From Gammaproteobacteria bacterium (GTDB lineage: Bacteria > Pseudomonadota > Gammaproteobacteria > Steroidobacterales > GCA-2729495): DNA of 64,000 nt. Position numbers and translations under genes: made by a program. Positions 35,859-51,256 of the stretch are shown here, piece after piece; within the stretch, counting starts at the first letter, position 1, and each line of letters starts with the position of its first letter. The notes under the pieces were generated by a model. The model worked only from the letters and a program-made list of their open reading frames with translations, was not told the origin of the DNA and ran no database searches. The stretch is taken from NCBI GenBank assembly GCA_024277915.1, contig JAJRUG010000044.1, forward strand, positions 79,490-143,489, given 5' to 3'.

Positions 35859-35869
<11 letters not shown>

Positions 35870-38231
35870 ATTCCGGTTCGCCCCCCCTGTACCTCATCCA
35901 GCCGAGTAAACCAAGCGCCGATCCGAACAGCCACACGGCAGCGGGTACCGGCACGGCCGAAGGCATGAGAAAACCGCTGCCGTTCAGTGCGAAGGTCTGG
36001 CCACCGAGGTAGCCATTGCCTGCCAGCAACGGGTTGTAGTAGATGTTGTAGTCACTGAAGATATAGTCGATCGTCAGCGTGGTCATATTAACGCCATCGG
36101 CCAGGCTCACCAGGCCGGCGTAAAAAGCAGCATTCCCGTCGTTGTTGCTGTCCCATATATTCAGGCGGATGCCGGATCCCAGCGATAACCCGCCCCAGGC
36201 GAAGTTATTGCTATAGCCACTGCCCCCGGTGCCCAGGTCGATACCGGCAAAATAAAGGTTCTGTACCCCGGCACCTTTGAAGATCAGGCTTGCAGCCCCG
36301 GTATTCCACAGGGTGTTTTGCAGGCTGTTGTTGGTGAAGTCACCGTTGACAAACCAGTTGGCACTCGCACCGCTGACCAGATAGCCGGTTCCGCCGATGA
36401 TGAGATTGGTGAAGTAGTTGTCGGCCGATCCGCTGAGGTAGGCGCCGTTGTTGGTGAAGGTACCTGCCCATATAGCCCTGGCGCTCTTGGCTTTTACCGT
36501 GCCCGTGGCTGTATTGGTGACATTACCGTTGACCGTGAGGCTGCCCGTGCCCGAGAGGTTGAAGTTCACATAGTTGATGATGATATCCGCGCTGAGTGAG
36601 CCGCCCGTGTAGTCGAGGGTATCGTTGTTGATAATCCTCCCGGCCCTAAGCGTGCCGCCGGAGAGGTTATAGGTGCCTGAACCTGTACTTGCGCCGATGC
36701 CCAAGTTGTTTGTCACTATATTCGTCCCGCCGGTCTGGGTGAAGGTGCCTGTGCCGTGGGTGCCGATGGCTTCATCATAGGTCGTGATCGTGTCCGTGCC
36801 GCTCAATGTATGGCTGCCGCTGGCACCGGAAGCAGAGCCGAGAATGAGTGTGCCAACGTCAATATCACCGCCGGCAACATTCAGCGTGCCGCCATCAATG
36901 ATCAACGCGCTCGAGCCACTACCGTTGAGAATGTCTCCGCCCACATCCATGGTTCCGCCGTCAATGATCAACGTGCTCGAGCCACTACCGTTGAGAATGT
37001 CTCCGCCCACATCCATGACTCCGCCCGAAAGGGTGTACGTTCCGCTGTTCATCCCGTTGCCGAGAGTGAGGTTGTTCGTCACCGTATGGGTACCGCCGGA
37101 CTGGGTGAAGACCCCGAAACCGGTTCGGCCGATGGCTTCAGAGCCGGCCGAGAGGGTGCCTCCATAGAGGTTGTAGCGGCCGTTGCCTGTCGTGCCCCAG
37201 CCGAGAACGAGATCGTTCGTCACCGTATTCGTGCTGCCGATTTGCGCATAGTTGCCTCTGCCGGCGTAGCCGATATATTCATTATCCGCGTACAGTGGGT
37301 GGGTGGGGTGCTGTGTCAGTGTCACGCCGGCGCCGCCGGTGCCGCTGATGGAGTCGATGGTGAGAGAACTCAGTCTGTCAGTCGGAGCCGTGTAGAGTGT
37401 GTTGTAGTAGTCGACATTTACGCGGTTGGCAAAGTTGAACTGCAGATTGACGATATCACCCGGCGCCGGTTGGGCACCGCTGTCCCAGTTGCTCCCTATG
37501 TCCCATTGACCGCTGTTGGCTATCCAGTTGACCGTTGCTGCCTGCGCTGACAGCGGCATGGTTGTTATTACCAATACCAGGGCTGCTGCCAGCCCCTGCC
37601 CGAGTTGCTTATGCAGAGGTCGCTTTTTCTTTATCCAGCCGAGTAAACCGAGTGCCGAGCCGAACAGCCAGACTGCTGCGGGCACTGGTACCGCCGTTAG
37701 CGAAGTCAGGTTAAATGCACTGTTTGGGTTCGTAGTCGCTGGAATATTGAGTCGAACTTGGTTAGCTTGCCTGTCGAATGCGTCGAGTGGCGGTGGTGTC
37801 AACGGCAACGAGACATCGGAAAAAACCAGGCCGCTGGCATCAACAAGCACAATCTGAAAATCGGTGTCGCTCTGAGCCGGACCCTCAGACCCATAGACCA
37901 TATACTCGTCGGTGATACCGTTGCCTCCGATCTGGTTGCTCACCCTGATCGTGAATGGGTTGATCTGAAAGCTCGATGAACCGATGGTTGCGCTGATACC
38001 GACTCCGGAACCGGAGAAATTGTAAATTCCGCCCGAACCGACAACAGAATCGTCGAACGTGAATGATCCGGAGAAAGTGTCGCCGATCGATGTGCCCCCG
38101 TAGCTATTGACCTGTCCGATCTGCGTGACAACGCCCGTGAAATTGAATGTGACCAGCGCAGCCTGCGCTCCGGACACCATTAACATGACAAAAGTGCACA
38201 CAGCACCTGATAGCAGATTGGATTTTTTCAT
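35859..38231 (-). CDS. large surface protein with two tandem in-frame (signal peptide - passenger - PEP-CTERM) modules
   Basis: ORF 35859..38306. ATG at 38231 follows AGGAG ([24 protein letters not shown]). Module 1 ends in [24 protein letters not shown] (nt ~37633-37692). It continues without a stop into [27 protein letters not shown], then a Gly/Thr/Asn-rich beta-helix-like repeat passenger, and ends in [23 protein letters not shown] (nt ~35897-35955). Confidence 0.7.
36888..37013. repeat. 63-bp tandem duplication inside the PEP-CTERM gene
   Basis: It encodes [13 protein letters not shown](T/A)LIIDGGT twice. The two DNA units are nearly identical. Confidence 0.85.
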
Positions 38232-38253
38232 CGTATTTCTCCTGTTCAATTGA

Positions 38254-38514
38254 TTACTGCGCCTGCCGTGCTGGAGAACGGGATTTTGCATAAACCACCC
38301 GGCCATCTGCGAGTGTGTGACGCTCGATCAGCTGTGCGGTTTCAAGTTCTTCCACCGCCTGCTGTACACGGCCGAGCGAGTATTTCGCCATTCGTTGCAA
38401 CAGCCACCACTGGCGAATGCCTTCGATCGAGTCGGCTGCATTGGGTTGCTCGTCGAGGTAGCCGAGCACTTCAGACTGGATTTCCGAGCGGGTGACATGG
38501 TGTGAACATTTCAT
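38254..38514 (-). CDS. 86-aa hypothetical protein (possible winged-helix-like fold)
   Basis: ORF 38254..38652. The ATG at 38514 sits 6 nt after GAGGA (MKCSHHVTRSEIQ...LIERHTLADGRVVYAKS). An alternative ATG is at 38547. It stops 22 nt upstream of the PEP-CTERM gene start. Confidence 0.5.
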   Translation of the reverse strand: MKCSHHVTRSEIQSEVLGYLDEQPNAADSIEGIRQWWLLQRMAKYSLGRVQQAVEELETAQLIERHTLADGRVVYAKSRSPARQAQ

Positions 38515-45705: not shown

Positions 45706-45706
<1 letters not shown>

Positions 45707-46062
45707 TGGCGGAAGAGCACGGTATTTTCTGGCTTGGCAAGCAATCAAAAACCGGAGTGGCCGAACAATATCTGGCAGACAACGATAAATTTGTCGCCGG
45801 AATCCGCGAGGCATGCGAGGCGTGCGGTTGTCAGGTGCAAGGGTTTGTTTCCGCGCAGGGCGTTTACGGTACATGGCTGGTGGAGTTCAGTCGGAACGAT
45901 GTTGAGGAGCGAGTGCTCTGGAACGGCAAGGATAAACAACTGGTACTTCAGGTCAGGATGAAACAGGGTCTTTGGGAGGAGCCGGCGACTACGGCGGTAT
46001 CCAGTCAGGATCTCAACGGCTTCACAGCAGGGATACAGTCCCTGTTGTCGGGGAAGGTTTGA
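45706..46062 (+). CDS. hypothetical protein
   Basis: 118 aa. The start overlaps the metH stop (TAATG). I recognised no family. Confidence 0.5.
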
Positions 46063-46116
46063 CGGATGGTCGAGCGGCCTGCGGGAGAGATGTAAAGAAC
46101 CTCACTGCTTTGATGA

Positions 46117-46146
46117 CGCAAAAAGAAACCCCGCCGAAGCGGGGTT
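46117..46146 (-). terminator. rho-independent terminator of the 151-aa secreted-protein gene
   Basis: The minus strand reads AACCCCGC-uucg-GCGGGGUU followed by UCUUUUU. Confidence 0.65.
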
Positions 46147-46171
46147 CCTGAGACGTACCAGTGACAAACTG

Positions 46172-46627
46172 TCAGTCGTCATCAGCTTTTTTTGGCTTTC
46201 CGGAAATTCTCCTCATCTGATAGGTCCAGAGGCTCAAATGATCCTGTGACATGCCCAGGATCTCGCTCCGGTTCACAACGACGATGCTATCTATACGTTC
46301 TGTTCCGATGCCTGTTATGAAAGTCAAGGTACCTCTGCAGTCGCGATTCACGGTCACTGAACCGGCGTATAAGATTTCCGGAACAAAGAAGGTGTTCTGA
46401 ACGGTGACGTCGAATGTACCGCTCAAGCTACCGTCTTTGGCAATATTCATCGTTCCTATAGCAGTGATATCTTGCGGGACTGGTACCTCCGAATGCCCCA
46501 CGCCGGTAGCGAACACCCAGTGTCCGGCTATGGCCTTAATAGAACATGGGCCACCATCTGCCAGTGCTTGAGTCGTTGGAAACATGCCAATTACTATCAG
46601 CAACATCATCATTTTCATGGTTTTCAT
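46172..46627 (-). CDS. small secreted protein of unknown function
   Basis: ORF 46172..46777. ATG at 46627 follows GGGAGA (MKTMKMMMLLIVIGMFPTTQALA signal peptide). The mature part has two Cys and looks beta-rich. Confidence 0.6.
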   Translation of the reverse strand: MKTMKMMMLLIVIGMFPTTQALADGGPCSIKAIAGHWVFATGVGHSEVPVPQDITAIGTMNIAKDGSLSGTFDVTVQNTFFVPEILYAGSVTVNRDCRGTLTFITGIGTERIDSIVVVNRSEILGMSQDHLSLWTYQMRRISGKPKKADDD

Positions 46628-46706
46628 TTCGGTTCTCCCATAATTGAAGAGCATATCGAATCTGTTAAGCGTAGATGATTCAGCCAGATTCGTTCGTCGC
46701 GCTCGG

Positions 46707-46816
46707 CAGCCCGGCGATCTTGGGGTCCTTCGGGGAGCCTTCCCAGGCTTCTCGGAGGAAGCGAGGACCCGTGGCATTGCGTCCCTGACTTTGGTCAGGT
46801 TTGCCTTTGTCAGCTG
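46707..46816 (-). ncRNA. c-di-GMP-I (GEMM-I)-like riboswitch aptamer in the 5' leader
   Basis: Minus-strand RNA is ACAAAGGCAAACCUGACCAAAGUCAGGGACGCAAUGCCACGGGUCC...GGACCCCAAGAUCGCCGGGCUG. It has GGCAAACC, a 6-bp hairpin with an xAAA tetraloop, GGGACGCAA(U)GCC, and a long second helix. It is colinear with the V. cholerae Vc2 core CAGGGCAAACCAUUCGAAAGAGUGGGACGCAAAGCC, which I recalled from the literature. Confidence 0.6.
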
Positions 46817-46824
46817 TAGGACTG

Positions 46825-46853
46825 CTTATGCGCCAATCAGGAAACGGCGTCAA
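46825..46853 (-). promoter_or_regulatory. sigma70-like promoter feeding the riboswitch leader
   Basis: The minus strand reads TTGACG-17 nt-CATAAG. The predicted transcription start (~46816-46819) coincides with the 5' end of the aptamer. Confidence 0.4.
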
Positions 46854-49850: not shown

Positions 49851-50212
49851 CTCGTTACAGGGTTTCGATACCGTACAGAATGTCATCACATCAGGGTCTG
49901 CATCGACATCCGCAATGGAAGGCAGCACCGAAGAAGAACAGTTCCAGGCGCAGTCCAAAACAGGCTGTTTTGCCATCTGAACTACAGTGACAGTTACCGT
50001 ATCGGTCTCGCCTGTCTGGTGCCCCCCCTGATTTGCATCAATTACGCCGGTACAGCGGTTTGCTACGTTGATTTCATCAACATTGGACTAACGGAGTATT
50101 GATGGGATTGGTTCGCAAGTAGCAAGCTAAAGACTGATTGGCGCTTTGTATACAGCGCACGCAATCGAACTGGCTGCGGTGTACCTGCAAAAAAAACAGT
50201 GAGGAGTCTGGT

Positions 50213-51256
50213 ATGAAAACCGTTAAGGTGCTGGTTGTTTTTTTCCTTGTTTCGATCGAAAGAATCCTGATATCTGCAAAAAGGACTCTGGGCCTGGGGC
50301 TCATGTGTCTTTCATTTTTTTCAGCAGCCAGCGCGGCATCCGATGGTAGCTGGGAGTGGATTCCCAATCAGCAGATCAGCGATAGCCTGACTGGTAGTGA
50401 CTACCAGGCCATCGCTGCGGGCAACCAGCACAGCCTGGTTCTGGCATCTGATGGATCCATTGTCAGCTGGGGGCAGGACTCCAATCATATAATCACCAAC
50501 ACTCCCACCGGTAGCGGCTATCAGGCCATTGCCGGGGGTTACTATCACAGCCTTGCCCTCACGATCGAAGGGTTCATTGTTGCCTGGGGTTATGATGCCT
50601 GGGGCCAGGTCAGCAACGTACCCGCCGGTAGCGGCTATCAGGCTATTGCGGCAGGTAACCAGCACAGCCTGGCTCTGACTGCAGATGGATCCATCGTTGC
50701 CTGGGGCAATGATGCATGGGGTCAGGTCAGCGACGTGCCGGCTGGCAGCGGATACCAGGCGATTGCGGTGGGCTGGAACCAGAGCCTGGCTCTGACCGCT
50801 GACGGATCCATCGTTGCCTGGGGGTACGATGCCTGGAATCAGGTTTCCAATATTCCCACCGGCAGCGGATACCAGGCGATCGCTGCAGGTTACTATCATA
50901 ACCTGGCCCTTGCAGCTGATGGGATCATCATTAGCTGGGGGCTGGAGTCCAATCGTGTGGTCGCCAACACTCCCGCCGGTAATGGTTACCTGGCTATTAC
51001 GGGGGGCAGCGACCATGCTTTGGCTTTGACTGCCGATGGATCCATCGTGGGTTGGGGGTATGACGCATGGAACCAGGTCACCAACGTACCTGTCGGCAGC
51101 GGCTACCAGGCGATTGCAGTGGGCTGGAACCACAGCCTGGCTCTCGCATCTGACGGATCTATTGTGAGCTGGGGAAAAGACAACAGTCAAAAGGTCAGCA
51201 ACACAGATCGTGGCTTGCAGGCCATTGCAGAAAACAGCCGGGTCAAATCACGGTAA
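50213..51256 (+). CDS. RCC1-like / BLIP-II-like seven-bladed beta-propeller repeat protein
   Basis: ORF 50138..51256. ATG at 50213 follows GAGGAG. The N-terminus is hydrophobic. There are seven 39-aa repeats GSGYQAIAAGxxHSLALTADGSIVAWGxDAWGQVSNVPx plus a partial eighth (GLQAIA). Confidence 0.75.
   Translation: MKTVKVLVVFFLVSIERILISAKRTLGLGLMCLSFFSAASAASDGSWEWIPNQQISDSLTGSDYQAIAAGNQHSLVLASDGSIVSWGQDSNHIITNTPTGSGYQAIAGGYYHSLALTIEGFIVAWGYDAWGQVSNVPAGSGYQAIAAGNQHSLALTADGSIVAWGNDAWGQVSDVPAGSGYQAIAVGWNQSLALTADGSIVAWGYDAWNQVSNIPTGSGYQAIAAGYYHNLALAADGIIISWGLESNRVVANTPAGNGYLAITGGSDHALALTADGSIVGWGYDAWNQVTNVPVGSGYQAIAVGWNHSLALASDGSIVSWGKDNSQKVSNTDRGLQAIAENSRVKSR
50393..51211 (+). repeat. 7 x 117-bp in-frame tandem repeats
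   Basis: The repeat boundaries come from the protein repeats. The DNA units share long identical stretches (for example ggtagcggctatcaggc and gatggatccatcgttgcctgggg). Confidence 0.85.

Follow-up and report, generated by a model that had tools for sequence, protein, structure and literature searches.

The window, that is, the whole 64,000-nt stretch of DNA that was analysed, carries on its minus strand a gene for a 151-aa protein whose 5' leader contains a c-di-GMP-I (GEMM-I) aptamer (Table 1). Taken together, the promoter-like element, the aptamer, a ~70-nt expression platform, the gene, and the intrinsic terminator behind it appear to form a self-contained monocistronic cassette. Its neighbours in the window, namely a ThiF-family gene, prmC, and metH, were absent from all 102 loci of the synteny check. 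An ORF of 118 aa without a Pfam family (45706-46062, plus strand), the ATG of which overlaps the metH stop codon, converges on the riboswitch-linked gene, and the terminator lies between the two. Elsewhere, a 372-aa protein encoded at 50138-51256 (+) has a hydrophobic segment at its N-terminus, contains repeats of the form SGYQAIAAG…HSLAL, and matches the RCC1 repeat and RCC1-like domain families, and an 815-aa ORF at 35859-38306 (-) gave no Pfam match at E <= 1e-5.

The element ahead of the aptamer had been described in the initial annotation as a TTGACG-17-CATAAG promoter. Its letters and spacing are present, although the element is only consensus-like, and the -10 hexamer, which has no T at position 6, fails the promoter scanner's rule. 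Transcription is predicted to start close to 46818-46817, some 3 nt ahead of the aptamer. The region homologous to L101, a related locus from the Logan assemblies, sets in at the promoter segment; TTGACG and the 17-nt spacing are kept there, with TACAAG as the -10 hexamer. A promoter at this position is plausible, though a weak one. A second promoter-like site, TTAACA-17-AATTAT at 46668-46640, was rejected, as its -10 hexamer is unconserved and its start would fall inside the Shine-Dalgarno sequence.

Table 1. Elements of the aptamer-gene cassette, in window positions and in minus-strand order.
Feature	Position	Strand	Basis or detail
Putative sigma-70-like promoter	46825..46853	-	-35 TTGACG 46853-46848, 17-nt spacer, -10 CATAAG 46830-46825
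c-di-GMP-I (GEMM-I) aptamer	46701..46814	-	RF03167 full-length match, ligand-contact spacing, covariation
P1 5' strand	46814-46811	-	
G20 equivalent	46805	-	Unpaired G ahead of G-C and C-G pairs
First hairpin	46804-46779	-	2-bp stem, 3-nt internal loop, 6-bp stem, CAAA loop
GGCAAACC	46804-46797	-	Read from sequence
Hairpin UGAC-CAAA-GUCA	46797-46786, loop 46793-46790	-	Read from sequence
GGGACGCAAUGCC	46785-46773	-	Read from sequence; followed by ACGGGUCC, which opens the long helix
C44 equivalent	46781	-	Vc2/Vc1 spacing
A47 equivalent	46778	-	Vc2/Vc1 spacing
Linker A47-A48-U49	46778-46776	-	
P3	46776-46708	-	
Distal P3 insertion, ~46 nt	46720..46765	-	Insertion in cmscan alignment
G83 equivalent	46715	-	In 2-nt bulge of P3 3' strand
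GGACCCCAAGAUCGCCGGGCUG, far strand of long helix	ends 46707	-	Read from sequence
C92 equivalent	46706	-	
P1 3' strand	46705-46701	-	
Hairpin CGAAUCUG (46692-46685) / CAGAUUCG (46664-46657)	46657..46692	-	RNAfold; 8 bp, 20-nt loop
GCUCUU box	46647..46652	-	Complementarity read from sequence; candidate relay element
Shine-Dalgarno GGGAG (46639-46635) and ATG (46627-46625)	46625..46639	-	GGAGAACC invariant in the six closest leaders
Putatively regulated gene, 151 aa	46172..46627	-	ORF listing
Intrinsic terminator after gene	46115..46149	-	11-bp GC-rich stem, then T-run; terminator scan

A cmscan search of the whole 64-kb window against 4227 Rfam families revealed a match of the minus strand, from 46814 to 46701, to the c-di-GMP-I clan CL00126 (E = 6.9e-12). 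The best model was RF03167, named "c-di-GMP-I-GGC", which scored 60.8 bits against a gathering score of 59 and was aligned over its full length (1-80). Such a score and E-value, obtained over the whole window and all 4227 families, place the match far above chance, and both a local scan and a permissive full-window scan gave it again. Besides RF03167, two CL00126 models matched at E <= 0.05, one of which also reached its own threshold; since the output reports the best clan member only, these further models appear without names and the RF01051 bits are not displayed, the threshold-reaching companion being most probably RF01051 and the two at E <= 0.05 presumably RF01051 and RF03168. Outside the GEMM-I aptamer, positions 1-64000 of the window gave no Rfam match at E <= 0.05, and the permissive scan at the same cutoff returned neither a tRNA in the 64 kb nor a cobalamin or SAM element by the metF/metH/cystathionine-synthase-like genes (~40.9-49.9 kb). 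All the leader elements listed in the initial annotation were found on the minus strand where it had placed them, and its assignment of the leader to the GEMM-I class was borne out by the covariance-model score, the architecture, and the covariation among homologues. The limit that it proposed, position 46707, falls inside the aptamer and is too short, with C92 and the 3' strand of P1 lying beyond it.

The first hairpin consists of the pairs G14-C39 and C15-G38, an AAA/GAC internal loop, six base pairs (CCUGAC/GUCAGG), and a 4-nt loop, as obtained from the sequence and the cmscan alignment. It fits the GEMM architecture as first described, with stems of 2 and 6 bp, an internal loop of 3 nt, and a loop of 4 nt (PMC1950547), and P1 is only 2-4 bp long. 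Two deviations from the consensus had been reported for this leader, a CAAA loop instead of GNRA and an A-to-U change in the linker (AAU), and both are genuine. The same pair of changes is present in L101 (protein 87% identical), and because L101 is an independent assembly, they are not sequencing errors. [quoted passage not shown] The AAU linker of the window departs from this near-invariant, not absolute, AAA; according to the alignment, it is shared with L101, and the seven other homologues have AAA. At the loop, the clade as a whole shows C/A/G/U-AAA, with CAAA in the window and GAAA in two homologues, and no 11-nt tetraloop receptor was recognisable in the window aptamer. The Rfam model pairs linker position three with the final U of P3. 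In the window this gives a U.U mismatch, flagged in the NC line of cmscan, which sits at the base of P3 beside the binding pocket and accounts for one of the two cells left unpaired at this base pair in the covariation table.

The distal insertion of P3 is almost invariant in its 5' part, and hardly any of columns 43-72 in alignment A2 vary. Within the insertion lies a CUUC/GAAG hairpin whose loop, CUCCGA, is similar to an anti-Shine-Dalgarno sequence. The segment GGGUC (G48-C52) can pair either in GEMM-I style, with C104, C105, and G99-U101, or with the GGACC that the insertion contains; the sequences all accommodate either register, and no covariation separates the two. In single-sequence folding with RNAfold, the minimum free energy (MFE) structure did not contain the GEMM fold (z = -0.8).

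Concerning the distribution of the system, 48 homologue clusters of the 151-aa product were found in a large protein collection, with genome matches mainly in Woeseiaceae MAGs and also in Acidobacteriota, Acidimicrobiia, and further groups, and 80 more loci were obtained from metagenomes. A homologous leader was located only ahead of the closest homologues (L001, L021/L022, L023, L024, L025, L027, L079, and L101; n = 9), which come from Woeseiaceae-type marine-sediment MAGs and metagenome contigs. More distant gene homologues had no aptamer: Rfam at the gathering score matched only L001 among 20 genome loci, and a purpose-built covariance model (R1), run over the window and 99 loci, recovered nothing beyond the nine known leaders. 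A 24-bit R1 match in L027 corresponded to a terminator hairpin and was ruled out as an aptamer. All nine homologue aptamers scored best on RF03167 (44-76 bits), six of them above the threshold of 59.

Among the nine homologues, four first-hairpin pairs showed compensatory changes, of which three belong to the 6-bp stem and one to the 2-bp stem. For example, G21-C46 is replaced by C-G in L023 and L079, and UGAC/GUCA of the 6-bp stem by UAGC/GCUA in L024 and L025 and by CGCC/GGCG in L079. Of the cells, 94.4% were paired, compared to 22-47% when the partners were slid, and changes on both sides affected 9 cells against 2.4 expected from shuffles, none of the 500 shuffles reaching as high. The fold is thus supported by first-hairpin covariation; P3 and the distal hairpin are almost invariant and for that reason uninformative on this point. 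When the window was compared to L101, identity amounted to 98.4% in the aptamer (122 nt with 2 differences, one converting a G.U pair of P1 to G-C), 92.3% in the coding sequence, and 89.7% in the expression platform, with 80.6% in the promoter segment, 53-65% in the flanks, and 53% further upstream. The aptamer is the most constrained segment of the cassette. The coding sequences (window 46172-46627, minus strand; L101 496-951) differ at 35 nt, distributed 11/11/13 over the codon positions, with 87% amino-acid identity; relaxed or diversifying selection on the secreted protein, next to an aptamer that is nearly unchanged, is suggested. The aptamers of L021 (1290-1410), L022 (122-242), and L027 (695-815) reached only 44 bits. 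A 1-nt deletion in GACG-AAAGCC and first-hairpin mismatches are present in L021/L022, and G45C breaks a pair in L027; these three may be decaying riboswitch copies.

In V. cholerae Vc2, the ligand is contacted by G20, A47, and C92, and a universally conserved Watson-Crick pair between helices is formed by C44-G83 (PMC4744006, PMC6140456); the Vc1 equivalents are G12, A39, C104, and C36-G90 (PMC4744006). Vc2 numbering was carried onto the window by the published spacings (A47 = G20 + 27 nt; C44 = A47 - 3). G20, A47, and C92 are invariant over all 9 aligned sequences, the distance of 27 nt between G20 and A47 being the same as in Vc2 and Vc1, and C44 and G83 are both present and invariant in the alignment, in agreement with the inter-helix pair. 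The signature of the window is G-A-C, corresponding to the canonical binding site. The question of c-di-GMP versus 3'3'-cGAMP, which the initial annotation had not decided, can be narrowed toward c-di-GMP by G20, where GEMM-Ib has A, and by A47, where the GGC variant has G. Since G20/A47/C92 are canonical, C44-G83 is present, and position 20 is not A, c-di-GMP is most likely the ligand. A Geobacter-style GEMM-Ib riboswitch sensing 3'3'-cGAMP would share the common fold, yet we consider it very improbable at this locus: such riboswitches need and carry A at position 20 (A14 in Gs1761), whereas the window and all homologues have G, and wild-type Vc2, with its G20, binds cGAMP only at about 10 uM and c-di-GMP at pM (PMC6140456).

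The database label requires separate consideration. The consensus of RF03167 reads GACGC-G-AA, and the window reads GACGC-A-AU. We take "GGC" to denote positions 20/47/92, as this consensus suggests; the c-di-GMP-I-GGC variant was reportedly defined by Weinberg et al. 2017 (PNAS) without its ligand being established. Position 47 is A in all ten sequences (window and homologues), and the window RNA, having no A47G, which defines the variant, should not be filed there. The clade is canonical by its binding site though its overall sequence lies nearest to that model; that such models overlap in the RNAs they recognise has been noted by others (PMC9943018).

That the RNA nevertheless belongs to the orphan GGC variant or behaves like it, or that its rare changes have shifted specificity to another signalling nucleotide, seems unlikely. 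RF03167 is the best model for the window as for its relatives, the overall sequence is nearer the variant consensus than that of a generic GEMM-I would be, and U49, fixed in two independent sequences, adjoins the pocket. The nucleotide following GACGC is, however, A and not G throughout, G20 and C92 are canonical, and the AAA linker in seven of the nine homologues together with the GAAA loop in two marks the changes of the window as substitutions of a single lineage. A decaying relic that no longer binds a ligand, leaving the gene constitutive or controlled by its promoter only, appears somewhat less probable still. Two deviations at near-invariant positions, the U.U mismatch, the degenerate appearance of the 44-bit homologues (L021/L022 and L027), and the distant gene homologues without any aptamer would agree with decay, but the aptamer is the best-conserved segment of the cassette in the comparison with L101, and every nucleotide of the ligand and tertiary contacts is intact. 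Also unlikely is a scenario in which the Woeseiaceae-type clade is a canonical (A47) sister of the GGC variant, the loop of the P3 insertion mimics an anti-Shine-Dalgarno sequence, and AAU and CAAA have retuned affinity or specificity. Were it true, the cassette would represent a natural intermediate in the drift of c-di-GMP-I toward new ligands or, alternatively, a GEMM-I RNA that sequesters the ribosome-binding site via a long-range pseudoknot between loop and Shine-Dalgarno sequence.

Compared to these alternatives, we favour a functional c-di-GMP-I (GEMM-I) aptamer at 46814-46701 that most likely binds c-di-GMP, with a probability of approximately 0.75. On every count that can be judged from sequence, the RNA is a c-di-GMP-I riboswitch, agreeing with the class in its ligand contacts, its architecture, and the tertiary pair, and departing from it in the GNRA loop and the AAA linker. 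The leader is thus best described as a true member of the class and an ordinary find, except for two rare deviations and a misleading database label.

That this RNA regulates at all we infer, as we do its ligand, the level of control, and the direction. In the proposed mechanism, the ligand would stabilise a three-helix junction composed of P1, the first hairpin (2+6 bp), and P3, including the C44-G83 pair. Its two guanines would be recognised by G20 and C92, with A47 stacked in between, and the short P1 would become locked on binding. The GCUCUU box could serve as the relay, being complementary either to the GAGC of the P1 3' strand (46704-46701) or to the Shine-Dalgarno GGGAG. In the window and L101, GAGC(G) of the P1 3' strand finds its complement in (Y)GCUC at 46653-46649, and the MFE fold of L101 contains a GAGCG/CGCUC helix. 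With ligand, P1 would form and GCUCUU would be freed to pair with the Shine-Dalgarno sequence, turning translation OFF; without ligand, GCUC would be held by the P1 strand and translation would be ON. The terminator scan predicted no minus-strand intrinsic terminator in the leader, the only strong one lying after the gene at 46149-46124, and as the leader has none, control of translation initiation is favoured over attenuation. We give control at translation roughly even odds and, within it, slightly favour the OFF response, which overall remains a tentative proposal; mRNA stability or Rho access is a possible level of control.

Regarding the elements between the aptamer and the start codon, the GAAUCUG...CAGAUUC hairpin reported there is present, and its long form occurs only in the window and L101. 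In other homologues the position is taken by a shorter hairpin (CGAAU/AUUCG and variants), three pairs of which have changed in both strands. The long stem is AU-rich, and because no U-tract follows, the hairpin is not an intrinsic terminator. In constraint folding of the window leader (RNAfold), the Shine-Dalgarno sequence was ~0.95 unpaired irrespective of whether the aptamer was enforced or free, and the homologues showed no consistent shift in Shine-Dalgarno accessibility between the two states. The anti-Shine-Dalgarno helix has only 5 bp, two of them G.U, the relay pairing is not kept in detail in L001, L024, L025, L027, and the L023 group, and the full-leader MFE folds vary among homologues. 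An alternative from RNAalifold pairs GGGC of the P3 3' strand with GCUC and has one compensatory change, in L024, where both copies of the duplicated UAYGCUC box are changed along with C109. In every homologue, the CUCC loop of the P3 insertion is a complement of the Shine-Dalgarno sequence, but such a pairing is not compelling: when all 14-mers of a leader are ranked by their pairing to the ribosome-binding site, the loop comes only 7th to 39th. A block with the consensus YUYAACAAAYUCRRUACGYUC, located 20-45 nt before the start codon, is common to both leader subgroups (window 46628-46680, minus strand; L001, L023-L027, L079, L101, and L102), the platforms differing otherwise, and the UAYGCUC box is duplicated in the window group.

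The product had been described as secreted and without a recognisable family, and this description stands: the N-terminus is a Sec-type signal peptide ending in …TQALA|DG without a lipobox, and searches of Pfam and NCBIfam returned no family. A PDB sequence search with the family profile likewise returned no relative. The start codon aligns with the N-termini of the homologues, in which two cysteines (C28 and C97) are invariant. An in-frame ATG located 27 nt upstream (AUGCUCUUC…, window 46654-46628, minus strand) gives a 160-aa call, P0001; the segment so added overlaps both the GCUCUU box and the Shine-Dalgarno sequence, and the ATG is ACG in L101. Position 46627 is therefore the conserved start, and the 160-aa call is probably an annotation artefact. 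An AlphaFold2 model built with 26 homologues (pLDDT 85) exhibited an N-terminal helix followed by an up-and-down beta-barrel, for which Foldseek returned only designed small beta-barrels, nitrobindin, and retinol-binding protein (TM 0.4-0.55). The product is thus predicted to be an eight-stranded, calycin-like beta-barrel without an assignable function. An exhaustive profile search collected 365 clusters at 50% identity, of which 35 had E <= 1e-30. Distant relatives of 250-720 aa (e.g., P0127, P0139, and P0162) hold 2-4 tandem copies of the domain, some also bearing PKD or TIG/IPT domains, fusions which suggest that the domain is used at the cell surface or extracellularly. Together with the signal peptide, they fit the bias of GEMM-regulated genes toward extracellular and membrane functions (PMC1950547).

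If the favoured reading holds, an uncharacterised family of small secreted beta-barrels, with about 365 clusters at 50% identity and no Pfam model, would come under c-di-GMP control in Woeseiaceae-type bacteria, which are abundant in marine sediment and of which few have been cultured. The Rfam model of the GGC variant can catch RNAs with a canonical site, so that automatic annotation may imply an orphan ligand where c-di-GMP is likely. The AAU linker and the CAAA loop provide natural test cases for tolerance at two near-invariant GEMM-I positions, and the current understanding of the riboswitch class is unchanged.

When compared to known systems, the RNA shares with c-di-GMP-I (RF01051; V. 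cholerae Vc2, PDB 3IRW/3MXH) the three-helix junction, a first hairpin composed of 2 bp, an AAA/GAC internal loop, 6 bp, and a 4-nt loop, the contacts G20/A47/C92 with 27 nt between G20 and A47, the C44-G83 pair, and the position in the 5'-UTR before a gene for an extracellular protein. It differs from the class in having AAU instead of AAA, with U.U at the base of P3, CAAA instead of GNRA, no recognisable 11-nt receptor, a conserved insertion of ~46 nt in distal P3, a very short P1, and no terminator. With c-di-GMP-I-GGC (RF03167), its best covariance model, it has the lineage sequence GCCACGGGUC and GCCGGGCUGCC in common, whereas A at 46778 makes its signature G-A-C and not G-G-C. The GEMM-Ib 3'3'-cGAMP riboswitch (Geobacter Gs1761, PDB 4YAZ) has the same fold and belongs to the same clan, in contrast with the window in bearing A20 where 46805 is G. 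Finally, V. cholerae Vc1 in the gbpA leader (PMC4744006) is, like the window RNA, a gammaproteobacterial GEMM-I located before the gene for a secreted protein; both have conserved key residues and no classical terminator, while the expression platform and the gene of the window are unrelated to those of Vc1, which is of the translational ON type.
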